A stretch of 51,315 nt of DNA from Nitrospirae bacterium CG02_land_8_20_14_3_00_41_53 (lineage in GTDB: Bacteria; Nitrospirota; Thermodesulfovibrionia; Thermodesulfovibrionales; SM23-35), in the NCBI GenBank assembly GCA_002780895.1, contig PEUB01000106.1:1-51315 (forward strand), in the 5' to 3' direction. The notes under the pieces are model-generated. The model searched no databases and was not told the origin of the DNA. It was given only the letters and a program-made list of their open reading frames with translations. The first letter of the stretch is position 1. The number at the start of each line of letters is the position of its first letter. The translations under genes and the position numbers were made by a program. Shown here piece after piece: positions 3,111 to 49,240 of this stretch.

Positions 3111-4358
3111 ATTAAAAGATTACCTGACAGAAAAGGATATTTTGGTATTTACGGTGGACGTTTTGTCCCTGAAACTCTTATGCCTGCACTCAAAGAGCTT
3201 GAGGAGGCATTCTTTTACTCTAAAAAGGATAAAGAGTTCCAGAGGGAACTTAGACATCTCCAGAAGACATACATAGGCAGACCCACACCGCTTTATTTTG
3301 CCAGACGCCTTACAGAACATCTCGGTGGCGCAAAGATATACCTGAAGCGTGAAGACCTTGCACACACGGGTGCACATAAGATAAACAATGCTGTCGGCCA
3401 GGTATTACTCGCAAAGAAAATGGGGAAGAAAAGAGTGATTGCGGAGACAGGCGCTGGACAGCATGGTGTGGCAACTGCAACAGGGGCAGCGCTTAAGGGT
3501 CTCGAGTGTGGAATATATATGGGCACCGAGGATATGAAAAGGCAGGCTTTGAATGTGTTCAGGATGAGACTACTCGGCGCAAAAGTAACAGAAGTTCCAA
3601 CTGGCTCAAGGACATTAAAGGATGCAATTAATGAGGCATTGCGCGACTGGACTACAAACGTTCGCACAACACATTATGTTTTAGGCACGGTATTCGGGCC
3701 TCATCCATTCCCTGTTATGGTCAGGGATTTCCAGTCAGTTATCGGGAGAGAGGCAAGAAGGCAGATACTTGATGCTGAAGGTAGACTCCCTGATTATCTT
3801 ATAGCCTGTGTTGGAGGTGGAAGTAATGCCATGGGGCTTTTCTATGAATTTCTTAAGGAAGATAATCCCCCTACACCCCCCTTTAGTAAAGGGGGGAAGG
3901 AGGGATTATTGGATAAAGATATAAAAATGATTGGTGTTGAAGCAGGCGGTAAAGGCATAGAAACAGGAGAACATGCTGCAAGGTTTGCAGGCGGCTCCAT
4001 CGGTGTATTTCAGGGATGTAAGAGTTATCTCCTTCAGGACGATGATGGAAATGTCTTAGGAACACATTCTGTCTCAGCAGGTCTTGATTATGCATCTATA
4101 GGGCCTGAACATCCCTTTCTAAAAGATGCAGGACGTGTTCAGTATACATACGCAACCGATGATGAGGCATTGGCTGCATTTGAGCTTTTATCAAGGCTGG
4201 AAGGAATCATACCCGCACTTGAGTCTGCCCATGCGATTGCAGAGGTTGTAAAACTCGCTCCGAAATTGGACCAAGATAAAATTATTATAATCAACCTTTC
4301 AGGCCGCGGTGATAAGGATGTTCAGCATGTTGCAAAGATTAAAGGGATAGAGCTGTGA
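3111..4358 (+). CDS. trpB: Tryptophan synthase beta chain (probable ATT start; contains an in-frame palindrome insertion)
   Basis: [24 protein letters not shown] and GGGSNA motifs; conserved N-terminal [13 protein letters not shown] lies upstream of ATG3180. Confidence 0.97.
3864..3907. repeat. C/G-tract palindrome, in frame in trpB
   Basis: AATCCCCCTACACCCCCC-TTTAGTAAA-GGGGGGAAGGAGGGATT, encoding [14 protein letters not shown]. Confidence 0.9.
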
Positions 4359-5134
4359 TTTCGAGGATTACTAAGACGTTTAAAAGATTAAAGAAGGAAG
4401 GGAAGAAGGCATTCATCCCTTATGTCATGGCTGGTGATCCCTCTCTTGAGAGGACGAAAGAAATCGTCATTTTGTTCGGGGAGTGTGGAGCTGATATTGT
4501 CGAACTGGGTGTACCTTTTTCAGACCCACTTGCTGATGGTCCAACAATCCAGCGTGCGTCTGAAAGGGCATTAAAAAATGGTGTTACCTTACGAAAAGTC
4601 ATCTCACATGTAAAAGACTTGCGGCAGATAACCCGGATACCTATAGTTCTTATGACATATTACAATCCTGTATTTAAATATGGTGAGGAGAATTTTATAA
4701 AAGATTCTAAGGATGCAGGAGTTGATGGTGTGATTATCCCTGACCTGCCGCCAGATGAGGCAGAAGATTTTATAAAACAATCAAGGAAGGCAGTCCTCGA
4801 TAGCATTTTTCTTCTTGCCCCGACATCAACAGAGGACAGGATAAAAAAGGTGACAAAGGCATCGAGTGGTTTTATATACTATGTCTCAATAACAGGGATA
4901 ACAGGAGCCAACCTTTTACTTGATGGCTCGATGGATGTATTGATATCGAAAATAAAGAAATACACAGACAAACCAATAGCAGTTGGTTTTGGGGTCTCTA
5001 CGCCAATGGAGGCATCGGCAGTTGCTGGGCTGTCTGATGGCGTTATAGTGGGAAGTGCCATAGTCAAGAGGTTACATGAGTCTCCTGATGAGCTAAAGCA
5101 TTATCTTATCAGTCTGAGAGAGGCAATAAAATAA
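4355..5134 (+). CDS. trpA: Tryptophan synthase alpha chain
   Basis: [21 protein letters not shown] and DGVIVGSA motifs. Confidence 0.97.
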
Positions 5135-5175
5135 TTTTTATTGAACTTGGTACTTGGTTGTTGGAGTTTAAATAA

Positions 5176-6009
5176 ATGGCATGGTTTAAGAAGACAAAAG
5201 GAATAAGGACGGATAAGAAAGGAAAGATACCCGAAGGTCTGTGGGTTAAGTGCGATAGCTGTAAGGAGATAGTATATAAGAAGGAGATAGATAAGAACCT
5301 CAAGGTATGCCCTAAATGCAATTATCATTTCAGGATAAGCGCACGTGAGAGACTGAAACTCCTTGTTGATGAAGGGAGCTTCGTAGAAATGGATGAGGGC
5401 ATTGTATCAGTTGACCCGCTTAATTTTAAGGATACCATCTCTTATAAAGATAGGATAAAGGAGAAACAGAAAAAAAGCGGGCTCAAAGAGGCTGCGATTT
5501 CAGGGGATGCACTTATAAAAGGTTATCCTGTAAGTCTTATTATCATGGACTTTTCCTTTATGGGTGGAAGTATGGGTTCTGTCGTTGGTGAAAAGGTATC
5601 GAGGGCAGCTGAAAGGGCCGTAGAAAAAAAACAGCCGCTTATAATTGTTTCATCATCCGGCGGTGCAAGGATGCAGGAAGGGATTTTCTCCCTTATGCAG
5701 ATGGCAAAGGTCGCTGCTGCTATAGGAAGACTGAGGGATAATGGGATTCTTTATATATCAATTATGTGTGATCCAACATTTGGCGGTGTTACTGCAAGCC
5801 TTGCTACGATAGGTGACATAATTATTGCTGAACCTAAAAGTCTGATCGGTTTTGCAGGCGCGAGGGTAATAGAACAGACCATCAAACAACCACTTCCGGA
5901 TAACTTCCAGAGAGCTGAGTTCCTCCTCGAGCACGGGTTTATAGATATAGTTGTAGGCAGAAAAAACCTGAAGGAAACACTCGCTAAGCTTTTCGAACTT
6001 CTTCTATGA
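5176..6009 (+). CDS. accD: Acetyl-CoA carboxylase carboxyltransferase beta subunit
   Basis: Zn-finger CxxC...CxxC, MGGSMGSVVGEK, SGGARMQEG. Confidence 0.97.
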   Translation: MAWFKKTKGIRTDKKGKIPEGLWVKCDSCKEIVYKKEIDKNLKVCPKCNYHFRISARERLKLLVDEGSFVEMDEGIVSVDPLNFKDTISYKDRIKEKQKKSGLKEAAISGDALIKGYPVSLIIMDFSFMGGSMGSVVGEKVSRAAERAVEKKQPLIIVSSSGGARMQEGIFSLMQMAKVAAAIGRLRDNGILYISIMCDPTFGGVTASLATIGDIIIAEPKSLIGFAGARVIEQTIKQPLPDNFQRAEFLLEHGFIDIVVGRKNLKETLAKLFELLL

Positions 6010-7550
6010 GTTACAGCGAGACTGTTAATTATCTATATAATCTCCAGAAATATGGTATCAAATTCGGGCTTGATAATATAAGCAGGCTCATGTCTGCGCT
6101 CGATAACCCGCATACGTTATTTCTCTCAGTCCATGTTGCAGGCACAAACGGGAAGGGCTCGACTTCAGCAATTATTGCATCTATCTTAAAGACTGCTGGG
6201 TTCAAGGTCGGGCTTTTCACATCACCCCACATTATTAGCTTTACAGAAAGGATCAGGGTTAATGGTGAGGAGATAACCGAAAATGAAGTAGTAAGCCTTA
6301 CAGAAGAAATAAGAACCAGAATAGAGGACACCCCCTCCCTAACCCTCCCCCCTCGAGGGGGAGGGCAGGGGTGGGGGGGAGAAGTCGAACTATCACCTAC
6401 ATTCTTCGAGGTGGTAACTGCAATGGCGCTCCTGTATTTCAAAAGAAAAAAGGTAGATATAGCAGTAATAGAGGTGGGCATGGGTGGAAGACTCGATGCT
6501 ACAAACATAATTACACCTGAGATATCTATAATCACAAACATAAGCTGCGACCACAGGGAATTTCTTGGAGGTACACTTAAAGAAATAGCTCATGAGAAGG
6601 CAGGGATTATAAAAGGTGGTATACCCGTTGTAGCCTCATATCAAGAGTCTGAGGCAATGGATGTTATTGAGAAGAAGGCAGAGGAGAAAGATTCTGAGTT
6701 ATATATCTATGGGAAAGATTTTTCTTCAGTACTTAAAAGAGAAGACATTTCAGAAATATGCTTTGACTATTGGAGTAGCAGCTCTCTTATGATTAATGAT
6801 TTAATCTTACCGCTTACAGGTGAGCACCAGATGCAAAACGCCTCTGTTGCCATAAAAACTATCGAACTCCTCTCAAAAAAATTAACCTTGCACTCACTAC
6901 TTACTTCACCCTCGCTAAGCCTTCCCGTCAAGGGGGAGGAACACACCCCTACACCCCTCTCAAGAGGGGATTTACCCTCTCTCCTTGCGGGAGAGGGCAA
7001 GGGTGAGGGGTACCGTAGATTTTTGAATGCAGCTTTGTATCAATTTATCAGGAAAGGTCTCGAGAATGTTAAGTGGCCGGGAAGGCTTGAGATTATTAAA
7101 GAAGACCCGCCTATACTGATAGACGGTGCACATAACCCTGCCGCAGCAATTGCCCTTTCTAAGGCATTAAAAAAATTTTCCCCCGGAAAAAATAAAAGAA
7201 TTATACTTGTACTTGGCATAATGGGTGACAAAGATGCACGGGGAATAATGGAGCCATTATTGCCTCTCGCATCTGAAATTATACTTACTGCTCCAGCATA
7301 CAGCAGGTCAGCTTCTCCTGAAAAGCTTGCAGGTATTGCAGCATCGTTAGGATTCTTTGATGTGCGTATTGCACCTACTATGAAAGATGCTGTTGAAATG
7401 GCAATTGAAGATAGTTACAAAACCATTAATCCCCCCTTGCCCCCCTTTAATCACTCATCACTCATTGTAGTTACGGGTTCATTTTACACAATAGGTGAAG
7501 CTAAGGAAGTGCTTGGTCAGAAGGGTGTACTTACAAGGCTGAGAGAATAA
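6006..7550 (+). CDS. folC: Folylpolyglutamate/dihydrofolate synthase with three repeat-derived insertions
   Basis: HVAGTNGKGS, EVGMGGRLDATN, WPGR, DGAHN and VTGSFY motifs; 514 aa is longer than typical FolC. Confidence 0.95.
   Translation: MSYSETVNYLYNLQKYGIKFGLDNISRLMSALDNPHTLFLSVHVAGTNGKGSTSAIIASILKTAGFKVGLFTSPHIISFTERIRVNGEEITENEVVSLTEEIRTRIEDTPSLTLPPRGGGQGWGGEVELSPTFFEVVTAMALLYFKRKKVDIAVIEVGMGGRLDATNIITPEISIITNISCDHREFLGGTLKEIAHEKAGIIKGGIPVVASYQESEAMDVIEKKAEEKDSELYIYGKDFSSVLKREDISEICFDYWSSSSLMINDLILPLTGEHQMQNASVAIKTIELLSKKLTLHSLLTSPSLSLPVKGEEHTPTPLSRGDLPSLLAGEGKGEGYRRFLNAALYQFIRKGLENVKWPGRLEIIKEDPPILIDGAHNPAAAIALSKALKKFSPGKNKRIILVLGIMGDKDARGIMEPLLPLASEIILTAPAYSRSASPEKLAGIAASLGFFDVRIAPTMKDAVEMAIEDSYKTINPPLPPFNHSSLIVVTGSFYTIGEAKEVLGQKGVLTRLRE
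6329..6379. repeat. C/G-tract palindrome, in frame in folC (copy 1)
   Basis: CACCCCCTCCCTAACCCTCCCCC-CTCGA-GGGGGAGGGCAGGGGTGGGGGG, encoding TPSLTLPPRGGGQGWGG. Confidence 0.85.
6907..7010. repeat. Three-module composite palindrome, in frame in folC (copy 2)
   Basis: Module A ...CCCGTCAAGGGGGAGG, module B AACACACCCCTACACCCCTCTCAAGAGGGGATTTA (6940-6974), module C CCCTCTCTCCTTGCGGGAGAGGGCAAGGGTGAGGGG. Confidence 0.85.
7428..7464. repeat. Half palindrome plus heptamer pair, in frame in folC (copy 3)
   Basis: AATCCCCCCTTGCCCCCCTTTAA then TCACTCA TCACTCA, encoding NPPLPPFNHSSL. Confidence 0.75.
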
Positions 7551-7551
7551 C

Positions 7552-7658
7552 AACAGTGAACAGTAATCAGTTGTCAGTGAACAGTAAGAAATATAAAAGA
7601 ATTATCCTTGTCATTTTGCTATTCACTATTCACTATTCACTATTCACTATTCACTGTT
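7552..7658. repeat. Inverted heptamer arrays at the lptD 5' end
   Basis: AACAGTG AACAGTA ATCAGTT GTCAGTG AACAGTA (7552-7586) facing five perfect CTATTCA units (7619-7653) plus CTGTT. Confidence 0.9.
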
Positions 7659-9520
7659 TTGCGGAGGAACAGACAATCATAACCTCCGACACCCTCGAGT
7701 ATAGCAAGGATACAGCCACATATGTTGCAAAAGGGAATGTGAAGTTTCAGAAAGCTGATAAGGTTATCGAAGCCAATGAGATGAGATATAATGAGCAGAC
7801 ATCGGATGTCATCGCATCAGGGGCTGTAAGATATAATGACACTGACACATCATTCACAGCAAGCAGGGCAGAGTTAAATCTCGAAACAGAAACTGGCATA
7901 CTCTACGATGCAGAAATCCTTTTCAAAAAAGATAATTACCATATTTCAGGGAAAGAAATTGAAAAGAAGGGTGAGAAATATTACTTCAGCCCTGAGGCGA
8001 CATTCACAACCTGTGATGGCCCGGTGCCTGCATGGTGTTTCAGAGGCAAGAATATAGATGCTGTGGGCGGAGAGGAGTTAAAGGCAAAGGATGTATCTTT
8101 TCGTATAAAGGATATCCCTGTTTTCTATACCCCCTATTTCCGGGCGCCGCTTCTTACTGAAAGACAGGCTGGATTTCTAACGCCGGTTATAGGGTATAGT
8201 AATTTAAGGGGAGCACACTTGAATACGCCTTTTTTCTGGGCGATATCAGAAAATCGTGATGCAACTATTAGCCTTGATCTATACTCGAAGAGGGGTATTG
8301 GAGAAGGCATGGAATACAGGTATATAGAGCCCGGGGACATTAAAGGTAAATGGTGGCTTTATCACATAAGAGATACGGAACTCAATAAGAATTTCTACGA
8401 AGTAAAGGCCTTGCACGAACAGAGATCTGCAAATGGAATCGGTGGTTTTCTGAATCTGAACTTTGTAAACGAAAAAGACTTTTATAGAGAGTTCAGCCCT
8501 CATTTAGAGGTGCGCACGAACCGCTTCCTTGAGTCAACAGGAGAGATATCGCTTCCTCTTACTAATTCCCGTGTTTACCTTTTATCACAGTACTGGGTTG
8601 ACCTGAGGGATGAAACCAAACTTGTTCCTCAGAGGCTGCCTGAGGCAGGATATGTTTTGAACCCTGCAAAGGTCGGTAATCTCTGGTTTTCTGCAATGGC
8701 GACAGTCTCCAATTTCTGGAGGGATGAAGGTGTAAATGGTCAGAGACTTGATATCTATCCAAGGGTGCTGCATAAGTTCGGGAGCGATGTCGTGGTTTTA
8801 CAGACGCTGGGTTTACGGGAAACAGCCTATTCGTTGCAGAAGGGTGAGGATGATTCCCTTCATAGAGAAGCTATTGAATACAGCATAGTAGCCCATACAA
8901 GGCTTTTGAAAAGATACGAGTCATTCACGCATGTATTAGAACCTTCCATAGGATATACTCTTATTACAGATTCTGAGGATCTGCCGCTATTTGATTCAAC
9001 AGAGCTTTTTAAAAAAACATCCACGGTAGAGCTTTCCTTACTTAACAGGTTTATAAATAATGGTGGGGAGTTTATGGTTCTCAGGGCTTCACAGGGCTTT
9101 GATTCATATAAGGGAGACAGGGCATTCCTGCCATTCAGGCTTGAGGTGGGGATAAGAAGACCTGTCTCGCTGCGCCTTGATACAAGCTATGATGTAAATA
9201 CAGGTAAACTTGAGAGTATAAATTCTGACCTGTGGATGAAGATATCTGAGGCTACAATCTCTGCTGGACAGAGATATAACAGGCTGAATGACACACACTT
9301 CTATACCGCGAGCATCGGGTTATATCCCTATAAACCATTGTATACGGAGGCGAGACTCTGGTATGATGCCAAGGAAAAGAAGTCAAAGGAAATCGCCATG
9401 AATATAAAATATACAAGTCAATGCTGGGGTGTAAATATGCAATTTATTAAAAGGCCAGGCGACTTTACTGCAGCATTATTGTTTGAGTTAAAAGGGATTT
9501 CTAAAGGCCTTAAGATTTAA
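7556..9520 (+). CDS. lptD: LPS-assembly protein LptD
   Basis: OstA-like N-domain, FTTCD...PAW, PVFYTPY...RQAGFLTP, C-terminal SQCWG...ELKG; located after folC. Confidence 0.9.
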   Translation: MNSNQLSVNSKKYKRIILVILLFTIHYSLFTIHCFAEEQTIITSDTLEYSKDTATYVAKGNVKFQKADKVIEANEMRYNEQTSDVIASGAVRYNDTDTSFTASRAELNLETETGILYDAEILFKKDNYHISGKEIEKKGEKYYFSPEATFTTCDGPVPAWCFRGKNIDAVGGEELKAKDVSFRIKDIPVFYTPYFRAPLLTERQAGFLTPVIGYSNLRGAHLNTPFFWAISENRDATISLDLYSKRGIGEGMEYRYIEPGDIKGKWWLYHIRDTELNKNFYEVKALHEQRSANGIGGFLNLNFVNEKDFYREFSPHLEVRTNRFLESTGEISLPLTNSRVYLLSQYWVDLRDETKLVPQRLPEAGYVLNPAKVGNLWFSAMATVSNFWRDEGVNGQRLDIYPRVLHKFGSDVVVLQTLGLRETAYSLQKGEDDSLHREAIEYSIVAHTRLLKRYESFTHVLEPSIGYTLITDSEDLPLFDSTELFKKTSTVELSLLNRFINNGGEFMVLRASQGFDSYKGDRAFLPFRLEVGIRRPVSLRLDTSYDVNTGKLESINSDLWMKISEATISAGQRYNRLNDTHFYTASIGLYPYKPLYTEARLWYDAKEKKSKEIAMNIKYTSQCWGVNMQFIKRPGDFTAALLFELKGISKGLKI

Positions 9521-10037: not shown

Positions 10038-10142
10038 ATCCCTTCCTCTACCACTTTCTTTTTTCCCCTTCTGGTATATATAATACCTAAATTGAGCGAT
10101 TCTTAATAATATAATCATGGAACTTGTTGAATTTATTATCAA

Positions 10143-10330
10143 ACACCCCCACCCTAACCCTCCCCCGTCAAGGGGGAGGGGATAGAGAAAACCCCCCGTC
10201 AAGGGGGAGGGGATAGAGAAAACCCCCCGTCAAGGGGGAGGGGATATCTATATAAATCCCCTCTTGAGAGGGGTGTAGGGGTGTGTTATCCCCCCTCCCC
10301 TGGCGGGAGGGGCAAGGGGAGGGGGATTAT
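10143..10330. repeat. Intergenic composite palindrome cluster with 31-bp tandem amplification
   Basis: CCCCCGTCAAGGGGGAGGGGATAGAGAAAAC at 10162-10192, 10193-10223 and partially 10224-10246; module B at 10253-10287; module C at about 10288-10328. Confidence 0.9.
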
Positions 10331-13714: not shown

Positions 13715-13719
13715 GCAAA

Positions 13720-14970
13720 GTGCAAATAGTAAAGTGCAAAGAGCTAAAAGTTAAGAAACTTAGTGCCATGCGTTCTTTGCTGCATACTCTTAGTTACATA
13801 CTAATAGTTACATGCCCTTTGCTATTTGTTTCATCTGAAAATCCCCCCATCCCCCCTTTACTAAAGGGGGGTGAGGGGGGATTACTTTCAATCTGTTATG
13901 CTGCTACACCGCATGAAGAATATAAAAGGATACAGAAAGAGATAGATTCGCACAAGGGAAAACTCAAAAAAGTAAAAAGGCGTGAATCCTCGATCCTAAA
14001 TGATATCGAGAAGACCAACATGCAGCTCAATATAGTAGAGGCTGAACTCAGAAAATACAGGAAGAAACTTATGGACACAGAATCAAATATATCGAAGGTA
14101 GAGGCTGAAATTTCTCAAAATAAAAGCAGTATCGAGAAGCGCAGGGAGTGGATAAAGAGAAAACTCAGGGCTATGCAGAAATATGGGCATACCGCAGACA
14201 TAGTTCTGTTATTTTTGAGCGCTGATGATGTCTCTCAGATGATGAGAAGCGGGAAATCCCTGCAATATATTGCTTCTTACGAACACAGGGTACTGAACAC
14301 CTATAAAGAGAACCTGGAAGGCCTTCAAGAGAAAGATAGTCAGCTCATGGCGCTCAAGACAGAACTGATAAAGAATAAAGAGAAGGTCAGGGCAGATGAG
14401 GCATCCCTTGCGGAAAAGAAGAAGAACAAAGAAGTAATTCTTACATCTGTAAGAAAAGAGGAATCCTCTTATACAAAGATGTTAAGGGAGTTAAAGGATG
14501 CCTCAAAAAGGCTGTTAGAGGTTATTAGAGAGGCTGAGAAGACAGATACGTTCTCCGCAAAGGGTCTTTCAAGACTTAAGGGAAAACTTCCCTGGCCTGT
14601 TGAGGGAAAGGTGGCAATCCCGTACGGCTCTCAAAAGGATCTCCAGTTTAATACGCCGATTTTCAGAAGCGGCGCATACATACAGTCAGGTGCTGATCCT
14701 TTTGCAAAGGCCGTATATAATGGCAAGGTTGTTTTTGCAGAGTGGTTTAAGGGTTACGGCCAGCTCGTGATTATAAACCATGGTGATGGATATCATACGC
14801 TATATGGAAGTCTTTCCGAGATTTTTACTAAAGTTGGAGATATAATAAAGATAAAGCAGATAATTGGACGAGTGGGAAATTCTGGCATCCTCAATACGCC
14901 TGGGCTTTATTTTGAACTGCGATATAAGGGCAAGCCCCTTGATCCAATACAGTGGCTGAAAAAGAGATAA
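13720..14970 (+). CDS. envC: EnvC-like coiled-coil/M23 murein hydrolase activator (start uncertain)
   Basis: Long coiled coil, KGKLPWPVEG, GYGQLVIINHG, LYFELR; follows ftsEX. Confidence 0.85.
   Translation: MQIVKCKELKVKKLSAMRSLLHTLSYILIVTCPLLFVSSENPPIPPLLKGGEGGLLSICYAATPHEEYKRIQKEIDSHKGKLKKVKRRESSILNDIEKTNMQLNIVEAELRKYRKKLMDTESNISKVEAEISQNKSSIEKRREWIKRKLRAMQKYGHTADIVLLFLSADDVSQMMRSGKSLQYIASYEHRVLNTYKENLEGLQEKDSQLMALKTELIKNKEKVRADEASLAEKKKNKEVILTSVRKEESSYTKMLRELKDASKRLLEVIREAEKTDTFSAKGLSRLKGKLPWPVEGKVAIPYGSQKDLQFNTPIFRSGAYIQSGADPFAKAVYNGKVVFAEWFKGYGQLVIINHGDGYHTLYGSLSEIFTKVGDIIKIKQIIGRVGNSGILNTPGLYFELRYKGKPLDPIQWLKKR
13840..13883. repeat. C/G-tract palindrome in the envC N-terminal region
   Basis: AATCCCCCCATCCCCCC-TTTACTAAA-GGGGGGTGAGGGGGGATT; its core is the reverse complement of the trpB/manC core; encodes NPPIPPLLKGGEGG. 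Confidence 0.9.
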
Positions 14971-16326: not shown

Positions 16327-17001
16327 GTGTCCAGAATTGTAGTTGACATAGAGACGGTTGGAAAGGATTTTGAGTCTCTCGATAAAACAACTCAGGAATA
16401 TCTTCTGAGGTATGCAGAGACAGAGGATGAAAAAGAGGGGATAAAAGACCGTCTCTCTTTTTATCCGCTGACAGCCGAAATCGTTACAATAGGATTACTC
16501 AATCCTGATACTCAGAAGGGCATTGTATTTTTTCAGAACGCAGGTGATCCACTTCTTCCATTCGAAGAAGATAACGTGAGATATGAAACAGGGACAGAGA
16601 AGGAGATTCTTGAGAAATTCTGGGATGTCATTAAGGGCCATGACAAATTTATAACCTTTAATGGCAGGGGTTTTGACTGTCCTTTTATTTTAATCCGTTC
16701 TGCCGTCCATAAAATAAGGCCAAAGAAGGATTTAATGCCGAATAGATATAATGATACGCATATAGACCTGCTCGATCAGCTTACATTTTATGGCGCCTCG
16801 CGCAGGAGGTTTAGTCTTGATATGTGGTGCAGGACATTCGGTATAAAAAGCCCTAAAGAAGACGGCATTACAGGGTATGAGGTTAAAGATCTCTTCAAGA
16901 CCGGAAGATACATAGATATTGCGAGATACTGTGTCGGTGACCTCAGGGCAACTAAGGAGCTTTTAAACTACTGGGAGAAATATATAAAGTTTTCACCTTA
17001 A
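16327..17001 (+). CDS. PolB-like 3'-5' exonuclease / RNase H-like protein
   Basis: DIET, TFNGRGFD and YCVGD DnaQ-like motifs. Confidence 0.8.
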   Translation: MSRIVVDIETVGKDFESLDKTTQEYLLRYAETEDEKEGIKDRLSFYPLTAEIVTIGLLNPDTQKGIVFFQNAGDPLLPFEEDNVRYETGTEKEILEKFWDVIKGHDKFITFNGRGFDCPFILIRSAVHKIRPKKDLMPNRYNDTHIDLLDQLTFYGASRRRFSLDMWCRTFGIKSPKEDGITGYEVKDLFKTGRYIDIARYCVGDLRATKELLNYWEKYIKFSP

Positions 17002-18135
17002 ATAATCATTAATCTTTTTAAGTTCAAACCTTTCATTATCAAGAACATTATTAACAAACCTAAAAATAAACTTTCTCTGTTCTGAGGTAATCTCTGGATA
17101 AAAAATAGGGTTTGCAACGACAGCTCCTCTGAAGGCAAAAAAAGGTGCAACAACTTCGTTTATCTCTGTATCTCCGGATGCTTTTATATATTCATCAAAA
17201 AACAAATTCAATCCTTCTAAATATGCTCCCCTGACATCACCGTGATTCTTAATTGAAAAAAATATGTAATTTATTGTAATCGCTGTTACATCATCAGCAG
17301 GTTCTCCCCACGGGCCCCTGCTCCTGTCGAGTAGGATGAAATCTACTACCCCCCCATTCCCCCCCTTGACAAGGGGGGGTATAGAGGGGGTAGAGTCCTT
17401 GCTAAGAGAAGGTGAAGGGGAGGGTGAGTCATGACTTCTAACTTCTTTAAACCAGATATTGCCTGGATGAAAATCTCCATGTATCTGTGACAGCCTATTG
17501 TGTTTGGGTTTTAATTTATAAATCCAGTCAACTGACTTTTTGATTATCTCCGTTATTTCATCATAACTCAAGGTTCCATCAGGATATGTATCAAAAACCC
17601 CCATCAGACATTCGCCATGTCCCACAGTATCTCTTAATTTCCTCCAGTAAAGTGTTTTGGAATGTTTCTTAACAGAATGAATTTCTGCAAGATATGATGT
17701 CATTGCTTTTATCTTCTTGATATCAGAATTTTCAAGCCTGTCTTTATGAGAAAATTCAGTTAGATCATTAAAATAATGTTTGCCCGATCCTTTTTCCATC
17801 AACAAATAATATTCTTTTCCACCGCCGATGGACTTTATCGAACCGTCCTCCATCTCAGAGAGCACATCAACAGCCTTAATATGCCTGGGCAGGTTTTTGT
17901 ACTCATCAAGGTCAAGAAGGAATACTGAAGCCCTGTCTGAGGGATAGTCATGCCCCAAACCTTCTGAAAGAAGAGTCTTTACAACATATGATCTAATGCC
18001 ATGCGGGGTTTTCATTTCTATAAGGAAGCCAGAGCCCTGAACACCTGAGCCGAGCTTTCTGATATCCACTTGAATTACATCACTGAATTTTTTCAGAAGG
18101 TAGGCTTTTAATGTTTCTTCATTGATCATATTCAC
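16993..18135 (-). CDS. APH/choline-kinase-like phosphotransferase with repeat insertion
   Basis: HGDFHPGNI and LLD...GEPADD motifs. Confidence 0.8.
   Translation of the reverse strand: MNMINEETLKAYLLKKFSDVIQVDIRKLGSGVQGSGFLIEMKTPHGIRSYVVKTLLSEGLGHDYPSDRASVFLLDLDEYKNLPRHIKAVDVLSEMEDGSIKSIGGGKEYYLLMEKGSGKHYFNDLTEFSHKDRLENSDIKKIKAMTSYLAEIHSVKKHSKTLYWRKLRDTVGHGECLMGVFDTYPDGTLSYDEITEIIKKSVDWIYKLKPKHNRLSQIHGDFHPGNIWFKEVRSHDSPSPSPSLSKDSTPSIPPLVKGGNGGVVDFILLDRSRGPWGEPADDVTAITINYIFFSIKNHGDVRGAYLEGLNLFFDEYIKASGDTEINEVVAPFFAFRGAVVANPIFYPEITSEQRKFIFRFVNNVLDNERFELKKINDYLR
17346..17446. repeat. Palindrome, half element and heptamers, in frame in the phosphotransferase
   Basis: CTACCCCCCCATTCCCCCCCTT-GAC-AAGGGGGGGTATAGAGGGGGTAG (17346-17393), half element 17397-17427, then GACTTCT AACTTCT. 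Confidence 0.85.
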
Positions 18136-21126: not shown

Positions 21127-21300
21127 TTACTAAGATGGCTATAAGTAAGGATACATTGTCTGTCATTCCCGCTTGTCGGGAATCTTTCTTTAACAACCCC
21201 CTGTATCCCCCTTTTCTAAGGGGGACTAAGAAGGATTCTGGACAAGCCAGAATGACAACATGCATTGGGAATGTTGTCTTACTTATGGCCGACTTAGTAA
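21127..21300. mobile_element. MITE-like element with nested REP-like pair and half palindrome
   Basis: 31-bp terminal inverted repeats (21127-21157 and 21270-21300, 25/31 matching); inner inverted hairpins at 21161-21184 and 21234-21257; central C/G element at 21195-21225. Confidence 0.75.
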
Positions 21301-21364
21301 ATTATTAAGGAGGCTAAGCAGTAATTTATAAGGGATAAGAAGTATAATAATTTCATTAATAGAT

Positions 21365-41214: not shown

Positions 41215-41260
41215 AATCCCCCTATACCCCCCCTTTAGAAAAGGGGGGCGAGGGGGGATT
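41215..41260. repeat. Intergenic copy of the C/G-tract palindrome
   Basis: AATCCCCCTATACCCCCCC-TTTAGAAAA-GGGGGGCGAGGGGGGATT, with outer TGAAAAT/ATTTTCA arms. Confidence 0.9.
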
Positions 41261-42231: not shown

Positions 42232-42284
42232 ATACGGCAATCGCCACTATTGTTATAACCGGATTTGGGTTATAATGTTTATAA

Positions 42285-42767: not shown

Positions 42768-42791
42768 TATAGCTTTTTGGAGGGTTTCTAA

Positions 42792-43664
42792 ATGAAAGGC
42801 ATAATCTTAGCAGGTGGCATCGGGACAAGGCTTTATCCGGTAACAATAGGTATTTGTAAACAGTTATTGCCTATTTATGATAAGCCGATGATTTATTACC
42901 CCCTGTCTGTACTTATGCTTGCAGGGATAAAGGATATCCTGATAATTTCCACGCCACAGGATTTACAGCGTTTTATGAATATATTCAATGACGGCTCTCA
43001 TTTAGGGCTTAGTTTTTCTTACAGGGAACAGTCTCACCCGGGCGGCATTGCAGAAGCCTTTATCCTGGGTGAGAAATTTATAGGCAGTGATGATGTTTGT
43101 CTTGTGCTGGGGGATAATATTTTTTATGGCCACGGTCTTACAGGTTTATTGGAGAAGGCGGTAGATGATGTAAAAACAAAGGGTGGTGCGACAATATTTG
43201 GTTATTATGTCAATGACCCTGAAAGATATGGAGTAGTCGAATTTGATGAGAAGGGCAATGTCCTGTCTTTAGAGGAAAAGCCCAAAATACCAAAATCGAG
43301 ATATGCGGTAACAGGCCTGTATTTCTATAACAACGAAGTAGTAAAGATTTCTAAAAATATAAAGCCGTCGCGAAGGGGTGAGCTCGAGATAACAGATGTA
43401 AATAGAGAATATCTTAAAAGGAGAAAACTCAGGGTTGAACTGATGGGCAGAGGCTATGCCTGGCTTGATACAGGTACTCATAAGAGCCTTTTAGAAGCCG
43501 GTGAGTTTATATCAACTATTGAAAAAAGACAGGGGTTAAAAATAGCCTGCATAGAAGAAATAGCATACAAATTAGGTTATATTGATAAAAAGCAATTGTT
43601 AAAACTTGCACAGGCCTTAAATCATAATGAATACGGAAAATATCTTTTGAGGGTGATAAAATAA
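42792..43664 (+). CDS. rmlA: Glucose-1-phosphate thymidylyltransferase
   Basis: GIILAGGxGTRL, [17 protein letters not shown]. Confidence 0.96.
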
Positions 43665-43700
43665 CAGCAGGCAAAGGCCTTTTTTCTAAGCTTTTTAGTT

Positions 43701-44318
43701 ATGCCATTTATTTTTAAAAAATTATCAATACCGGAAGTTATCCTAATAGAACCAAAGGTTTTCAGGGACAGACGGGGACTCTTTCTGGAAACTTACAAAT
43801 ATTCAGACTTTGCTCAGTCGGGCATAAAAGAGCAGTTTGTTCAGGATAATTATTCAAAATCTGTAAAAGGCGTATTGAGAGGACTTCACTTTCAGAAAAA
43901 TCCCAATGCACAGGGCAAATTAGTCCAGTGTGTAAAGGGAAAGATATTTGATGTAGCGGTAGATATAAGAAAAGGTTCTCCCACCTTTAGACATTGGGTT
44001 AGTGTTGAACTGTCTGAAGAAAATAATCTTATGCTTTATGTCCCTTCTGCCTTTGCTCATGGTTTTGTTGTCCTGAGTGAAACAGCTGATGTTATATATA
44101 AGTGTAATAGAGAATATTCGCCAGAAGACGATAGGGGGATTATCTGGAATGACCCTGATATAAATATCAACTGGCCGATCAAAGACCCGGTTCTCTCAGA
44201 AAAAGATAAAAAACATCCAGCATTATATAATGCTGATATTAATTTTGAATACCCTTTTATATCCCCCCTTGCCAGGGGGGTTAGGGGTGTGTTTAAAAAG
44301 GGAGGCAGGCTGATTTAA
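43701..44318 (+). CDS. rmlC: dTDP-4-dehydrorhamnose 3,5-epimerase with repeat-derived C-terminal tail
   Basis: QDN, VLRGLHFQ, DVAVDIR and AHGF motifs. Confidence 0.95.
   Translation: MPFIFKKLSIPEVILIEPKVFRDRRGLFLETYKYSDFAQSGIKEQFVQDNYSKSVKGVLRGLHFQKNPNAQGKLVQCVKGKIFDVAVDIRKGSPTFRHWVSVELSEENNLMLYVPSAFAHGFVVLSETADVIYKCNREYSPEDDRGIIWNDPDININWPIKDPVLSEKDKKHPALYNADINFEYPFISPLARGVRGVFKKGGRLI
44259..44293. repeat. Module-B-type element in the rmlC 3' end
   Basis: ATATCCCCCCTTGCCAGGGGGGTTAGGGGTGTGTT, similar to 10253-10287. Confidence 0.8.
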
Positions 44319-44403
44319 AACAATATGTTGAAAAATAAAGGATATTTTAAGAATTTACTAAAAAACTTTTGACAATATGGTTGTTTAATACAGGAGGTGT
44401 AAT

Positions 44404-45261
44404 ATGAAGATTTTAATTACAGGTGCAAACGGCCAGCTTGCAAGGGAATTTCAAAAGGCGTTAGAAAACTATGAATATACAGTAGGGGCTTTAGATAAAG
44501 AAAGTCTGGATATATCTGATTTGAATGTCGTTATAGAAGCTTTTTCAAAATATAATCCTGATATTATTTTAAACTGTGCTGCTTATAATTTTGTAGATAA
44601 GGCTGAAAAGGATTTTGATACTGCATACAAAGTAAACGCCGCAGGAGTGAGAAACCTGGCGGTTGCGTGCAAAAAAAATAATGCCCTGTTAGTTCACTAC
44701 AGCACTGATTACATATTTAATGGAACAAAGGAAGATTTTTATACAGAGGAAGATGAACCAGATCCAATTAACAATTACGGTAAAAGCAAATTAATGGGTG
44801 AAAAGATTTTAACAGAAGAGACTGATAATTTTTTATTATTCAGGGTTAGCTGGGTATTTGGAGAAGGCAAACAAAACTTTCTTTATAAATTGTCCGAATT
44901 GGCAAGGAAGAATATGGTTTTAAAAATTGTTTGCGACCAGACCTCGGTGCCGACCTTTACAAAGGACATTATAACTTTAACAATGCTTGCAATAGAAAAA
45001 GGTCTGAGAGGGGTTTACCATCTGACCAACAGCGGATATGTTACAAGATATGAAGTCGCACGCTATTTTATTGATAGGCTTGGTCTGGATAACCTGATAT
45101 TGCCTGTAAACTCAGATTATTTTCCTTCACCTGTCAAGAGGCCATATTTCTCTGCAATGTCAAATCATAAGCTTTCGAGAGCCCTGGGCGTTAATATACC
45201 TGACTGGAGGATCGGCATTGACAGGTACATAGAAGAAATGTTTAAACAAGAGGAAATCTAA
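44404..45261 (+). CDS. rmlD: dTDP-4-dehydrorhamnose reductase
   Basis: GANGQL, STDYIF, YGKSK. Confidence 0.95.
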   Translation: MKILITGANGQLAREFQKALENYEYTVGALDKESLDISDLNVVIEAFSKYNPDIILNCAAYNFVDKAEKDFDTAYKVNAAGVRNLAVACKKNNALLVHYSTDYIFNGTKEDFYTEEDEPDPINNYGKSKLMGEKILTEETDNFLLFRVSWVFGEGKQNFLYKLSELARKNMVLKIVCDQTSVPTFTKDIITLTMLAIEKGLRGVYHLTNSGYVTRYEVARYFIDRLGLDNLILPVNSDYFPSPVKRPYFSAMSNHKLSRALGVNIPDWRIGIDRYIEEMFKQEEI

Positions 45262-46229
45262 TGAAAAAACTTTTAGTCACAGGTGGGGCCGGATTTATAG
45301 GAAGCGAATTTGTCAGACAGGGCGCAGAAAAAAGTTACAGGATAGCAGTTGTTGATAAACTCAGTTATGCCGGTGATTTAAAGAGATTAAAAGAATTTAA
45401 GAAAGAAATTACTTTTTACAGGAAAAACATAACTGATAAAGACTCTCTGGAACATATCTTCAAGACAGAAAAACCAGATATCGTTGTTCACTTTGCAGCA
45501 GAAAGCCATGTCGATAGGAGCATAGCTGATCCATCTCCTTTTTTGGATACAAATATAAAAGGGACACAGGTACTTCTTGATATCTCAAAACACTATGGGA
45601 TCGAAAGATTCATAAATATATCGACCGATGAGATATATGGTGAACTAACAGGGAAAGGACAATTTTATGAAACAACACCCCTGAACCCCAATTCTCCATA
45701 TTCGGTTAGCAAAGCTGCTGCCGATATGCTCGGAAGGGCATATCACAGGACATACGGCATACCTGTAATAACAATAAGACCATCTAATAATTATGGTCCA
45801 TGGCAGTATCCGGAAAAACTTATTCCGGTAGTTATACTCAAGGCATTGAGCAATAAAAAGGTTCCTGTTTATGGAAAAGGGCAAAACATCAGGGAATGGT
45901 TATTTGTATCTGATTGTGTAGATGCAGTATTTGGAATATCAGAAAAAGGCAAAATTGGAGAGATATACAATGTCGGGAGCGGAGAAGAGAAGAGGAATAT
46001 AGATGTGGTCAAAACTGTTTTAAAGCTGTTAGGGAAACCAGAAGATTTAATAGAGTTTACGAAAGACAGATTAGGGCATGATTTCAGATATTCTTTAAAT
46101 TCGAATAAAATATGCAAGCAGATTGGCTGGAAGAGCAAAATACATTTTCATGAAGGCATAGAAAAAACTGTAAAGTGGTATGTGGATAATATGAAATGGA
46201 CAAAAAGCAAAAAGACAGGCTTAGGTTGA
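45261..46229 (+). CDS. rmlB: dTDP-glucose 4,6-dehydratase
   Basis: GGAGFIG, AAESHVDRS, STDE, YSVSK, PEKLIP. Confidence 0.96.
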   Translation: MKKLLVTGGAGFIGSEFVRQGAEKSYRIAVVDKLSYAGDLKRLKEFKKEITFYRKNITDKDSLEHIFKTEKPDIVVHFAAESHVDRSIADPSPFLDTNIKGTQVLLDISKHYGIERFINISTDEIYGELTGKGQFYETTPLNPNSPYSVSKAAADMLGRAYHRTYGIPVITIRPSNNYGPWQYPEKLIPVVILKALSNKKVPVYGKGQNIREWLFVSDCVDAVFGISEKGKIGEIYNVGSGEEKRNIDVVKTVLKLLGKPEDLIEFTKDRLGHDFRYSLNSNKICKQIGWKSKIHFHEGIEKTVKWYVDNMKWTKSKKTGLG

Positions 46230-46282
46230 GGCCGAGGTTAAGTAAAGACTCAATCTTAGCCTCAGCCTTGACCTTAACCTTG
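46218..46282. repeat. Inverted hexamer arrays
   Basis: GGCTTA GGTTGA GGCCGA GGTTAA facing ACTCAA TCTTAG CCTCAG CCTTGA CCTTAA CCTTG. Confidence 0.75.
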
Positions 46283-46289
46283 TATTCCT

Positions 46290-47702
46290 ATGTTGAACGA
46301 TAAGATATTCCGGGAATACGATATACGGGGGATTGTCGGAAGGGACCTCAACGAAAACTTTGCCTTTTCTTTAGGGAAGGCATTTGGCACCCTCATAAAA
46401 AATATAAAAAAAAATGGAAACAGGGTAAGTGTAGGAAGAGATGGGAGAATAAGTTCTGAAAGACTTGCTGCGAACATTATTAAAGGAATAATATCAACGG
46501 GTATCGATGTTTATGACATAGGTCTCTGCCCGACTCCCTTGCAGTATTTTTCCATCCACCATCTCAATCTGGACGGCGGCATCATGGTTACAGGAAGCCA
46601 TAACCCGCCTGAATATAATGGGTTTAAGCTGAGTATCGGGAAAGAGACGATTTTTGGAGAAGAGATACAAAAACTTAAAGATATCATAGAAAAAAGGTCA
46701 TGGTCTGAAAGCCCAGAAAACGGGCATCTGGAGCATTATGATATACTCGGTGCATATAAAGATATCATGGTAAACAGGTTTTCCTATTTATCAAATAAAG
46801 GCTACAGGAGATTGAAGGTGGTGGTCGATGCTGGAAACGGCACTGGGGGGATAGTAGCTCCCGGAATATTAGAGGCTATGGGATGTGAAGTGATACCCCT
46901 TTGTTGTGAGCCTGATGGACGATTCCCAAACCACCATCCAGACCCGACAGTGGTAGAAAATCTCAAGGGACTCATAAAGGTGACAAAAGAAGAAGGGGCT
47001 GATATAGGGGTTGGATACGATGGAGATGCAGATAGGATAGGCATAATTGACAGTTTTGGGGATATTGTATGGGGTGATCAGATTATGGTCATCCTTGCCA
47101 GGGACATCCTGAAGAGGAAACCTGATGCAATCATCATCGGGGACGTAAAGTGTTCCCATACAATGTTTGACGACATAGAGAGGCACGGCGGCAAACCCAT
47201 CATGTGGAAGACAGGACACTCCCTTATAAAAGACAAGATGAGAAAAGAGGGCGCCCTCCTTGCAGGCGAATTCAGCGGCCATATCTTTGTTTCAGACGGG
47301 TATTTTGGTTTTGACGACGCAATCTATACTACATTCCGGCTCATAGAGATTATGAAGACCACAGCCCTTGGAATAAACGAATTGCTTTCAGACATCCCGC
47401 GTATGTGCTCCACACCCGAAATACACATAGACTGCCCGGAGGATCAAAAGAAGATGGTTGTGGAAAGATTGGTGCACCGTTGTAAAGAGTATAATATATC
47501 CGGCAATTGCCCTTTCCCAATAAAGAAGATCTATGACATAGATGGAGCGAGGGTTGTTTTTGAAAAAGGATGGGGACTCATAAGATCGAGCAATACCCAG
47601 CCGGTGGTCGTAATGCGATTCGAGGCAGAAGATGAAAAAAGTCTCAACGAATACAGGAACTTTTTGGAGAGAGAGCTGAAAGAGGCAATGGAGTTATTAT
47701 GA
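46290..47702 (+). CDS. Phosphomannomutase/phosphoglucomutase
   Basis: TGSHNP, DGDADR and GEFSGH motifs. Confidence 0.95.
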   Translation: MLNDKIFREYDIRGIVGRDLNENFAFSLGKAFGTLIKNIKKNGNRVSVGRDGRISSERLAANIIKGIISTGIDVYDIGLCPTPLQYFSIHHLNLDGGIMVTGSHNPPEYNGFKLSIGKETIFGEEIQKLKDIIEKRSWSESPENGHLEHYDILGAYKDIMVNRFSYLSNKGYRRLKVVVDAGNGTGGIVAPGILEAMGCEVIPLCCEPDGRFPNHHPDPTVVENLKGLIKVTKEEGADIGVGYDGDADRIGIIDSFGDIVWGDQIMVILARDILKRKPDAIIIGDVKCSHTMFDDIERHGGKPIMWKTGHSLIKDKMRKEGALLAGEFSGHIFVSDGYFGFDDAIYTTFRLIEIMKTTALGINELLSDIPRMCSTPEIHIDCPEDQKKMVVERLVHRCKEYNISGNCPFPIKKIYDIDGARVVFEKGWGLIRSSNTQPVVVMRFEAEDEKSLNEYRNFLERELKEAMELL

Positions 47703-49240
47703 AAGCACTTATCCTCGCAGGTGGTTCTGGAACAAGGCTTTGGCCTCTCAGCAGAAGGAATTATCCGAAACAATTTCTGAAGCTGAATGGTAAAAGCTCT
47801 TTTTTACAAAAGACCGCGGAAAGGCTTTTAAAAGTGATTTCTATTGATGACATTATTGTGATGACGAACAGTGAATATAAATTCCACGTCTTAGCCGACC
47901 TTAATGTCATGTTCAACAACCAGCATTTAATATCCAACCCTAACCATTCGCCTTTTGCCAATATCATACTTGAACCTGTAAGCAGGAATACAGCACCTGC
48001 CATAGCTCTTGGGATAAAATACTGTGTGGAAAAACTTGGATGTAAAAAAGATGAAGTATTATTTATCTCTCCTTCAGACCATGTCATAAAACCTGCTGAC
48101 AAATTTGCTGAATATATTAAACTTTCAGAGGAGATAGCTAAAAAAGGCTATATGGTGGCATTTGGCATAAAACCGACAAGATCTGAGACAGGTTATGGAT
48201 ATATACAAGTCAGTAAGGAGTCAGCAGCAGACAGTAAGCACCATGGGACAAACATGGAGCACGACAACATAACAGACAATGAAAATAATCCCCTCTTGCC
48301 CCCCTTTAGTAAAGGGGGGATGGGGGGATTTCCTGGCGAGATCGTCAAAAATAACTATTTCAAAGTAGAAGAGTTTACTGAAAAACCGGATACGGAGACT
48401 GCAAAAAAATATATTGGTGAAGGCAATTATTACTGGAATTCAGGTATGTTTGCCTTTTGCATAGGCACCATAATAGAAGAATTCAGCAAACACGCACCGA
48501 AGATAAGCGAGATGCTTGATATGAGTTTTGATGAGATGGTAGCAAACTTTAAGCAAATGCCTGACATCTCATTGGACTATGCTGTGGCTGAGAAATCAGA
48601 AAGGATAGTAATCCTGCCGCTCGATTTATACTGGAATGACATAGGCTCATGGGACTCGATATACGATGTATTAGATAAAAATGGCAGGGGGAATATCAAG
48701 ATGGGTGATGTTGTCGCAATAGATACCAAAGATACCCTTATAATCAGTGATAAAAGGTTTGTCGCTACAATAGGGTTAGATGATTGTTTGATAGTTGATA
48801 CAGATGATGCACTATTAATTGCAAAAAGGGGAGAGACACAAAAGGTAAGGGAGATAGTAAATAAATTAAGGGAAGATGACCGCAAAGAGGCCTTGGAACA
48901 TGTAACCATTTACAGACCATGGGGAAGCTATACAGTTCTTGGAGAAGGCGAACGATACAAGATCAAACGGGTTGTCGTAAACCCGCGTGAGAGACTGAGT
49001 CTGCAATTACACCATCACAGGTCAGAGCACTGGGTAGTGGTAAAAGGGAAAGCAAAGGTGACCATAGGAGATCGCGAAACCTTCGTGCACGAAAACGAAT
49101 CAGTATATATCCCCGAGTTAACCCGCCACAGGCTTGAAAATCCCGGCAAGGTTCCGCTGGAGATAATCGAGGTTCAAAACGGCGAATATGTAGGTGAGGA
49201 TGATATTGAAAGAATAGATGACGCATATGGAAGGGAATAA
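47699..49240 (+). CDS. manC: Mannose-1-phosphate guanylyltransferase/mannose-6-phosphate isomerase with loop insertion
   Basis: LAGGSGTRLWPLSR, NTAPA, WNSGMF, WNDIGSW, C-terminal cupin. Confidence 0.95.
   Translation: MKALILAGGSGTRLWPLSRRNYPKQFLKLNGKSSFLQKTAERLLKVISIDDIIVMTNSEYKFHVLADLNVMFNNQHLISNPNHSPFANIILEPVSRNTAPAIALGIKYCVEKLGCKKDEVLFISPSDHVIKPADKFAEYIKLSEEIAKKGYMVAFGIKPTRSETGYGYIQVSKESAADSKHHGTNMEHDNITDNENNPLLPPFSKGGMGGFPGEIVKNNYFKVEEFTEKPDTETAKKYIGEGNYYWNSGMFAFCIGTIIEEFSKHAPKISEMLDMSFDEMVANFKQMPDISLDYAVAEKSERIVILPLDLYWNDIGSWDSIYDVLDKNGRGNIKMGDVVAIDTKDTLIISDKRFVATIGLDDCLIVDTDDALLIAKRGETQKVREIVNKLREDDRKEALEHVTIYRPWGSYTVLGEGERYKIKRVVVNPRERLSLQLHHHRSEHWVVVKGKAKVTIGDRETFVHENESVYIPELTRHRLENPGKVPLEIIEVQNGEYVGEDDIERIDDAYGRE
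48287..48330. repeat. C/G-tract palindrome, in frame in manC
   Basis: AATCCCCTCTTGCCCCCC-TTTAGTAAA-GGGGGGATGGGGGGATT, encoding NPLLPPFSKGGMGG. Confidence 0.9.

Follow-up and report, generated by a model that had tools for sequence, protein, structure and literature searches.

How one short palindrome came to lie, in frame, inside several unrelated housekeeping genes is the question raised by a stretch of 51,315 nucleotides (nt) from Nitrospirae bacterium CG02_land_8_20_14_3_00_41_53 (contig PEUB01000106.1), the whole of which is called the window here. Near-identical G/C-tract palindromes of 44 bp were found in trpB (positions 3864-3907), in an envC-like gene (13840-13883) and in manC (48287-48330), as an earlier note on this DNA had described. 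The observation made in that note is confirmed, and its interpretation of the palindromes as mobile mini-elements is supported in its main lines. We consider it probable that they belong to a family of mobile elements of only 44-56 nt, which form hairpins, are non-autonomous and are copied in trans by a putative machinery. According to the mechanism we propose, the feature recognised by this machinery would be the hairpin in single-stranded DNA or RNA, and insertion would be roughly blind to coding status. Selection would then purge the copies bringing a stop codon or a frameshift, and the survivors would be translated as Pro-Pro-x-Pro-Pro-(Phe/Leu)-x-Lys-Gly-Gly-x-Gly-Gly at tolerant loops, linkers and termini.

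Architecture of the palindromes

The main type of the element (type A) is a nested palindrome of 44-45 nt with the structure AATCCCCCC-nnn-CCCCCC-TTTAnTAAA-GGGGGG-nnn-GGGGGGATT, in which the spacer between the outer arm and the C6/G6 tract measures 2-4 nt in the copies at 3864, 13840 and 48287. The relatives reported earlier at 6329, 6907, 7428, 17346 and 44259 and the copies at 10143-10330 and 21195 were likewise found to contain G/C palindromes, which are therefore confirmed at every coordinate of the earlier note; the peptides quoted there were reproduced, and every host open reading frame (ORF) is open. Within the window, the expression CCCC-N6-20-GGGG matched 54 times, compared with 5.9 expected matches, a maximum of 14 after shuffling and no case among 100 shuffles that reached 54. 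RNA folding of the elements of 44-48 nt yielded -27 to -34 kcal/mol, and a search of the window with Rfam at gathering thresholds gave no matches.

A comparison of 51 copies of 44 nt gave a mean ungapped identity of 83%; the stems are nearly invariant, and both spacers and the centre of the loop account for most of the variation. Type A ends with AATCC/GGATT, and the sole general feature of the flanks outside the 44-45 nt is a W base at -1 and +1. Any similarity between copies beyond the core or in longer flanks is weak and stems from subfamilies and neighbouring elements. The palindromes also nest inside one another, and in nested hairpins which do not end with AAT/ATT, the outer triplets were complementary in 9 of 23 cases, compared with 2.5 expected from shuffled partners (maximum of 8 in 1000). 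The invariant stems, the variable spacers and loop centres and the complementary ends of the subfamilies suggest that a hairpin, either of single-stranded DNA or of RNA, would be recognised rather than a linear sequence.

Census in the genome and placement in genes

The assembly holding the window (G000, in which the window lies on contig C18) comprises 2.008 Mb in 159 contigs and has a G+C content of 40.6%. A strict expression for type A retrieved 84 copies from it, an nhmmer profile built from 81 seeds yielded 180 loci at E <= 0.01, and any hairpin consisting of C5+, a loop and G5+ occurred 190 times. The motif is thus enriched genome-wide in the profile scan proposed earlier, while its reversed core is absent. 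For placing the copies relative to genes, we used a home-made gene map, in which ORFs of at least 90 aa were ranked by a codon log-odds score, resulting in 1643 genes covering 80% of the bases. Wholly inside genes were 69 of the 84 strict copies (82%), compared with 76.9% of 20,000 random draws of 45-bp windows (p = 0.30), and both 30-codon flanks scored best in the host frame for 52 of these 69 coding copies. Because the intragenic share matches random placement, G/C hairpins are evidently not excluded from genes. A further type with a TCGA loop (type C) had 24 of its 26 copies in G000 inside genes, and the same applied to 134 of all 190 C5+/G5+ hairpins. This corresponds to about one coding hairpin per 15 kb in a genome of 2.0 Mb, and the density of about one coding insertion per 6 kb claimed earlier holds locally but not genome-wide.

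The near-identical 44-mer was found in more than 60 unrelated genes. Pfam searches identified the hosts in the window as a TrpB-type PALP enzyme, a FolC-like Mur ligase, an M23 peptidase with a coiled coil, RmlC and ManC, and all ten further hosts scanned carry housekeeping domains (NiFe-hydrogenase large subunit, LarC-like protein, CobQ, amidohydrolase, MurD with two copies, FtsW, Ddl, FtsQ, CarA and YegS-like kinase). Seven non-coding copies lie within tight pairs of genes on the same strand. Five of these pairs were scanned for genes split by a copy, and all consist of distinct complete genes, such as those for the gamma and beta subunits of ATP synthase.

Empty and filled sites in related genomes

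The congener G001 shows about 90% DNA identity in the flanks of the elements and is collinear with window positions 3048-33665 at about 85-97% identity, with the alignment interrupted exactly at the elements. Of 21 strict copies from five contigs that were compared with this genome, 14 had flanks that could be paired on both sides. None of the 14 paired sites contained a type-A element in G001, and neither did the trpB and M23-peptidase sites (0 of 16 in total), which means that the segments are not simply common to all relatives. Three of the 16 sites are clean empty sites, namely trpB (57 nt), C44:47589 in ftsQ (54 nt) and C2:3202 in a hydrogenase gene (48 nt). The alignment of orthologues suggested earlier for defining empty sites and target duplications was therefore successful for the former, but revealed no common target duplication. 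The claim of mobility is supported by the lack of the element in G001 at trpB and at all 14 paired sites, and by copy numbers of its core (see below) from 0 to 115 between genera of one family.

The trpB site was analysed in a larger set of genomes. TrpB matches were obtained in 26 of 26 related genomes, 17 of which were aligned, while nine more distant or split hits were left out. G000 carries a 19-codon insert, and G013, which belongs to another genus, a 16-codon insert consisting of a 48-nt element that starts from the identical nucleotide. These are the only element inserts among the 17 aligned orthologues; G007 and G006 contain unrelated inserts of 7 residues, and 13 genomes including G001 either lack an insert or have a single additional residue. 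Compared with the solved structure 5ey5_B, the insert represents an 18-residue gap after the helix following the GGGSN motif. In an AlphaFold2 model based on 17 sequences (mean pLDDT of 63, i.e. poor), residues 228-245, which follow helix 217-225 and precede strand 249-254, appear as a low-confidence coil, but so do residues 258-315. Regarding the proposed selection for surface loops, the predicted placement of the insert offers weak support from this one case.

The partial copy at 7428 in the folC gene represents a different situation. G001 contains a near-full, point-mutated copy at this position, and G000 has lost 24 nt comprising the loop and the right arm. By its sequence, this is one old shared insertion in decay.

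Heptamer arrays and variable sites of MurD

Most of the other sites in G001 are not empty. Six of the 16 hold tandem repeats of heptamers or 8-mers, including the M23-peptidase site with heptamer repeats, one contains heptamers together with another, degenerate palindrome, and the rest carry short unrelated sequence; the manC site is occupied by an 8-mer tandem repeat. This occupancy favours an explanation without any dedicated mobiliser, in which the palindromes would spread and be exchanged through ectopic gene conversion, template switching at stalled forks and slippage within pre-existing hypervariable cassettes at a limited number of tolerant sites. We aligned murD from 25 genomes, leaving out G013 with a fragmented match, and found open frames of 454 to 574 aa within one order, which differ at three variable sites. 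The heptamer units or palindromes occupying these sites change from genus to genus in nearly all cases. Site 1 contains a tandem heptamer array with its own unit in nearly every genus, and a hairpin in G000 and G004. Site 2 contains a palindrome with a 7-nt loop between heptamer arrays, which is common to G000 and G003 and missing in G001. An older insert bounded by 12-bp direct repeats is common to G000 and G007 at site 3, with a hairpin nested in it only in G000. The 12-bp repeat was considered as a target duplication of the hairpin and rejected, because it belongs to the older insert shared with G007. Heptamer units generally differ between sites, and between genera at one protein site. As a side observation, several matches of relatives among the murD orthologues L284-L309 show in-frame stops in the search output.

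The association with heptamers extends to the whole genome. Seven is the commonest period of tandem repeats in G000 (160 of 399 arrays with at least three copies), 102 of these 160 arrays lie in genes, and 39 of the 190 hairpins are located within 60 nt of a period-7 array, compared with 6.5 expected (maximum of 13 in 200 placements). Gene conversion within cassettes would also be in line with the extra bases of variable length, which come without a fixed duplication, and with the occurrence of in-frame internal deletions. However, the three clean empty sites at trpB, C44:47589 and C2:3202 are located in conserved sequence and represent de novo insertions where the relatives have no cassette, and one and the same core occurs in different phyla. 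Moreover, the weak similarity between the flanks of different copies indicates that flanks are not co-converted. Altogether, we regard a spread without a dedicated mobiliser as unlikely.

Distribution of the core in other genomes

The 21-nt core CCCCCCTTTNNTAAAGGGGGG gives 61 forward-strand matches in G000 and 10 in G001. Its distribution is patchy, with 20 of 41 related genomes containing it, comprising 16 of 24 other members of the family and members of two other families of the order. The carriers contain 1 to 115 forward-strand matches, and the reversed control gave none in all 41 genomes. At the sites sampled, the core was inside long ORFs in G022 (4 of 4) and G036 (4 of 5), compared with 0 of 7 in G038. 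In the latter genome, a miniature inverted-repeat transposable element (MITE) of 172 nt with terminal inverted repeats holds two of the hairpin modules (L281:1378-1550) and is present in at least 7 copies of 91-99% identity, all of them non-coding.

A wider scan using one genome per species yielded at least 120 stretches with the core. The carriers among the matches listed are metagenome-assembled genomes (MAGs) of Nitrospirae/Thermodesulfovibrionales, Deltaproteobacteria/Syntrophales/Desulfobacterales, Nitrospinota, Brocadiia, Thiobacillaceae, Acidobacteriota, Ignavibacteriae and others. Of 91 core sites parsed among the matches listed, those with the full AATCC...GGATT form lie in long ORFs in 11 of 15 cases, compared with 15 of 76 for incomplete forms, which are mostly found outside Nitrospirota. 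Several deltaproteobacterial MAGs (loci L023, L027, L071, L091, L096) contain an intergenic chain of three hairpins of about 100 nt at several sites per genome, which is built from the same modules in the order inner hairpin, GGGGGGATT, AT-rich loop with AAGCGCTT, AATCCCCC and second inner hairpin. The loci nearest to G000 among the matches listed are from Nitrospirae/Thermodesulfovibrionales MAGs with 70-78% DNA identity over 0.7-2.8 kb. Sequencing runs were also screened with words sampled from window positions 3000-8000, and 23 DNA runs from groundwater/aquifer metagenomes, possibly including the source sample, contained 98-99% of them, compared with 5% in one RNA run.

Such a conserved core in several phyla could mean that the element is kept for a function, either at the level of DNA or RNA, where its structure might cause pausing, recombination or cleavage, or by providing the host proteins with a flexible Pro/Gly loop. 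The conserved stems, the co-varying ends, the lack of depletion from genes and the predominance of type C in genes would agree with this proposal. However, the hosts are unrelated enzymes which carry the insert at unrelated positions, congeners manage without it, old copies decay by point mutation and deletion, and no Rfam family was matched in the window. A retained function is therefore very unlikely in our view.

Reading frame and stop codons

None of the coding copies introduces a stop codon. Of the 69 coding copies, 29 encode Phe-x-Lys in the loop and 36 encode Leu-x-Lys, and only four use the third register, which would place TAG or TAA in the loop; all four carry stop-free loop variants. 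The single reading register claimed earlier thus applies to the copies in the window, but two registers are about equally frequent genome-wide. The copies also differ in length and symmetry depending on their location. A length of 44 nt was observed for 48 of 69 coding compared with 3 of 15 non-coding copies (Fisher p = 0.0008), 8 of the latter 15 being 45 nt long, and complementary spacers were present in 4 of 69 coding compared with 7 of 15 non-coding copies (p = 0.0003). Because a symmetric 45-mer with TCA or TTA spacers would contain TGA or TAA in the Asn-Pro-Pro register, the asymmetric forms may be those surviving a filter against stops and frameshifts. Finally, the three measured clean inserts of 48, 54 and 57 nt are all multiples of three. 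The frame filter postulated in the earlier note is in good agreement with these data.

The frame statistics also bear on the proposal that the inserts are absent from the mature proteins because of ribosomal bypass or mRNA removal, as in the case of the 'byp' GC clusters of Magnusiomyces mitochondria. Strong hairpins within ORFs would be compatible with such a process, for which the mitochondrial GC clusters set a precedent (PMC8811140). Elements that are bypassed do not need a frame, yet the coding copies are devoid of stops, the stop-bearing register is empty except for four stop-free variants, the inserts measured are multiples of three, and coding copies differ from non-coding ones in their length and in the symmetry of their spacers. 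We consider bypass highly improbable. Lastly, the segments might be low-complexity loops of ancestral origin or might have arisen as artefacts when G/C homopolymers were assembled, as could be suspected from 159 contigs and error-prone homopolymer tracts. Both explanations can practically be dismissed, given the same 44-mer in more than 60 unrelated genes, the relatives with empty sites, the core in 20 separately assembled genomes, the intact host ORFs and the 23 DNA runs mentioned above.

Search for a mobiliser and mode of movement

Several observations weigh against mobile elements copied in trans, beginning with the search for the enzyme. The earlier note suggested looking for a transposase gene flanked by elements, and none was found: G000 contains eight matches to Y1_Tnp (IS200/RAYT-type), and none of the six listed loci has a C5+/G5+ hairpin within 3 kb. 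Of the 41 genomes, 34 contain the family PF01797, some of them without any element, and G038 is among those lacking it; its presence does not track the element load. Neither an autonomous copy nor a parent insertion sequence with the arms parted by a gene was detected in G000, the sole genome searched, and the three clean pairs of empty and filled sites, which are a small sample, show no common direct repeat or fixed target duplication. Furthermore, G001 mostly has a different insert instead of an empty site, and part of the pattern could thus be due to old variable cassettes having been replaced or converted. Some copies are common to other genera and missing in the congener (trpB with G013, murD site 2 with G003, murD site 3 with G007), which requires parallel gain, loss or recombination. 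The start codons are the main weakness of the home-made gene map, and copies near an N-terminus may therefore lie upstream of the true start. Lastly, translation of the insert into a peptide is presumed on the basis of the frame statistics.

The non-autonomous nature of the elements, as proposed in the earlier note, agrees with the lack of arms parted by a coding insert and of Y1 genes flanked by hairpins at the six listed loci. All 45 solitary arm matches in G000 could be traced to degenerate copies, variants with two hairpins, or copies whose loop carries another hairpin or insert. A link to RAYT/IS200 enzymes was rejected as evidence either way, because PF01797 occurs in element-free genomes and because G038 lacks it and contains the core inside the 172-nt MITE.

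Regarding the mode of movement of the proposed mobile hairpins, the clean inserts are 4, 10 and 13 nt longer than the palindrome. Because of these variable extra bases and the lack of a fixed duplication at the three clean sites, a HUH/Y1-like route or a template-switch or RNA-mediated route would fit better than DDE-type cut-and-paste. We lean weakly towards a hairpin-specific single-strand (HUH/Y1-like) route. A more far-reaching proposal is that hairpins and heptamer arrays are two products of one horizontally transferable, hairpin- or RNA-templated insertion machinery, which would create no fixed duplication, write cassettes preferentially into coding DNA and rewrite hypervariable loops of the core proteome in several phyla. 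We consider this doubtful; if true, these would be the smallest known self-propagating elements living mainly inside genes.

Comparison with known repeat families

A close parallel are the Rickettsia palindromic elements (RPE; Ogata et al. 2000), which are described in PMC10969869 and PMC3733652 as repeats of about 150 bp inserted in frame in genes, with 44 of them in genes of R. conorii. Both families consist of in-frame palindromic repeats in unrelated metabolic genes, keep the ORFs open, add a recurrent peptide and lack an identified mobiliser. The elements described here are set apart by their size, being 44-56 nt long instead of about 150 bp (PMC10969869). They also have C6/G6 tracts, occur in genomes of free-living, Nitrospirota-like groundwater bacteria with the core in other phyla, and have 82% of their strict copies inside genes. 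Repetitive extragenic palindromic sequences (REP) are mostly intergenic with some copies inside ORFs, and a GTAG or CGTC tag marks one end of the REP hairpin (PMC3733652). Their resemblance to our elements consists in short hairpin repeats, occasional location in ORFs, lack of a target duplication, in our case at the three clean sites, and a plausible HUH single-strand mechanism for both. In contrast to the REP/REPIN-RAYT system, the elements have no GTAG/CGTC tag but AATCC/GGATT ends, are mainly intragenic, and flank none of the six Y1_Tnp loci. The distinction from REP and RPE drawn in the earlier note can therefore be upheld on the basis of the end tag for REP and of size for RPE.

Yeast mitochondrial GC clusters (PMC8811140) include in-frame insertions in var1, have fast-changing loops, merge and shuffle, and are bypassed during translation in one yeast. 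They share with our elements the form of short G+C-rich palindromes in a genome richer in A+T, the variable loops, the merging or nesting, the in-frame coding insertions and the lack of a known enzyme. On the other hand, the elements reported here reside in a bacterial chromosome and are mostly coding, whereas the GC clusters are mostly intergenic. Our frame statistics oppose a bypass, and the AG/TAG terminal repeats of the clusters, which are regarded as a target duplication, were not seen in the flanks, which show a W base only.

Classical MITEs possess terminal inverted repeats and a fixed target duplication. Like these, the elements are non-autonomous inverted repeats, and hairpin modules ride in true MITEs (window positions 21137-21304 and the 172-nt element of G038). 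They differ in that the 44-nt element shows no fixed duplication at the three clean sites and no parent insertion sequence with matching ends in G000. Nostocaceae reportedly carry small dispersed repeats (SDR) of 21-27 nt, which are said to be embedded in heptameric STRR repeats. If so, the common features are tiny hairpins in tandem heptamers, nesting in their own copies and the lack of a known mobiliser, and the differences concern the phylum, the sequence, the size of 44 nt instead of the reported 21-27 nt, and the location of hairpins and arrays mainly in genes (102 of 160 arrays). The SDR work of Elhai et al. (2008) on Nostocaceae is cited in PMC5861425. No description of the present element in Nitrospirota or Thermodesulfovibrionia was found in the literature searched.

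The elements stand out by their very small size, their mostly intragenic location in core genes, their tie to heptamer arrays and the occurrence of their core in several phyla. Until now, most of the evidence for selfish DNA residing in frame within genes came from the Rickettsia elements and the mitochondrial GC clusters, and it is extended here to free-living bacteria and a much smaller element. Most copies reside within essential genes for cell division, cell wall, amino-acid and cofactor synthesis and hydrogenase. They represent a natural experiment on the extent to which core enzymes tolerate loops inserted at random. They are also a source of rapid change in protein length, as in MurD, and call for caution when such MAGs are annotated, aligned or used in phylogenomics. 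The range from 0 to more than 100 copies in related genomes renders the search for the mobilising activity tractable.

Individual sites in the window

The palindromes and related features of the window are as follows.

3864..3907, trpB: type A, 44 nt, with slight degeneration of the right outer arm; compared with the congener, the whole insert spans 3864-3920 (57 nt, 19 codons)
6329..6384, FolC-like gene: type C, triple-nested palindrome with TCGA loop, read as TPSLTLPPRGGGQGWGG; -41.7 kcal/mol; G001 is 51 nt shorter here
6906..7010, FolC-like gene: composite of several G/C palindromes, about 105 nt; G001 has a different, type-B palindrome at the site
7428..7448, FolC-like gene: left half of type A (NPPLPPF), truncated old copy
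10143..10330, intergenic cluster between divergent genes: three tandem 31-nt units, then two further palindromes
13840..13883, M23-peptidase (EnvC-like) ORF: type A, 44 nt, residues 41-55, read as NPPIPPLLKGGEGG; -32.6 kcal/mol; true start codon uncertain
17346..17393, ORF 16993-18135 on the minus strand: type B with 7-nt loop and CTACCC...GGGTAG ends, read as TPSIPPLVKGGNGG; G001 orthologue 60 nt shorter overall
21137..21304, MITE: 168 nt, terminal inverted repeats of about 24 nt, TA duplication; empty site in G001; degenerate hairpin at 21195-21237
41215..41260, between divergent genes: type A, 46 nt, open only in the minus-strand frame of the N-terminal extension of an AmiA-like ORF
44259..44290, C-terminal tail of rmlC: short G/C palindrome past the Pfam domain; G001 homology stops at 44251
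48287..48330, manC: type A, 44 nt, read as NPLLPPFSKGGMGG; divides the NTP_transferase domain match into two stretches

Copies of the composite at 6906-7010 are present elsewhere in G001, G007 and G022, and no Pfam family was matched by the ORF at 16993-18135. The copy at 41215 had been regarded as intergenic, 46 bp long and closed by a TAG. Its length and the TAG in the plus-strand AAT register are correct, but the minus strand is open and would place the copy within the N-terminal residues 36-51 of the AmiA-like ORF, if this extension is coding, upstream of the Pfam domain beginning at residue 124.

Several minor observations concern the surroundings of these sites. Each 31-nt unit at 10162-10243 consists of a G/C hairpin with a GTCAA loop and an A-rich spacer, and similar heads are present on contigs C11 and C73. 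The MITE at 21137-21304 has about 5 near-full and about 25 partial relatives in G000, and a TA duplication is typical of IS630/mariner-type elements. Heptamer arrays are located at 7552-7585 and 13715-13741 of the window. Compared with window positions 5143-32491, contig C12 of G001 contains extra blocks of 2.06, 3.09, 1.55, 3.47 and 1.33 kb separating genes which are direct neighbours in the window. These blocks fit the larger genome of G001 (2.7 vs. 2.0 Mb).

Short stretches with 84-93% identity to the segment 3003-3165 upstream of trpB are present on other G001 and G013 contigs, and this segment may represent a repeated leader or promoter element. The conserved N-terminus of TrpB is encoded at 3099-3182, upstream of the first ATG. 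Because an AGGAGG sequence at 3100-3105 is followed by ATT at 3111, and no ATG, GTG or TTG is present after the preceding stop codon, translation of TrpB likely starts at this ATT.

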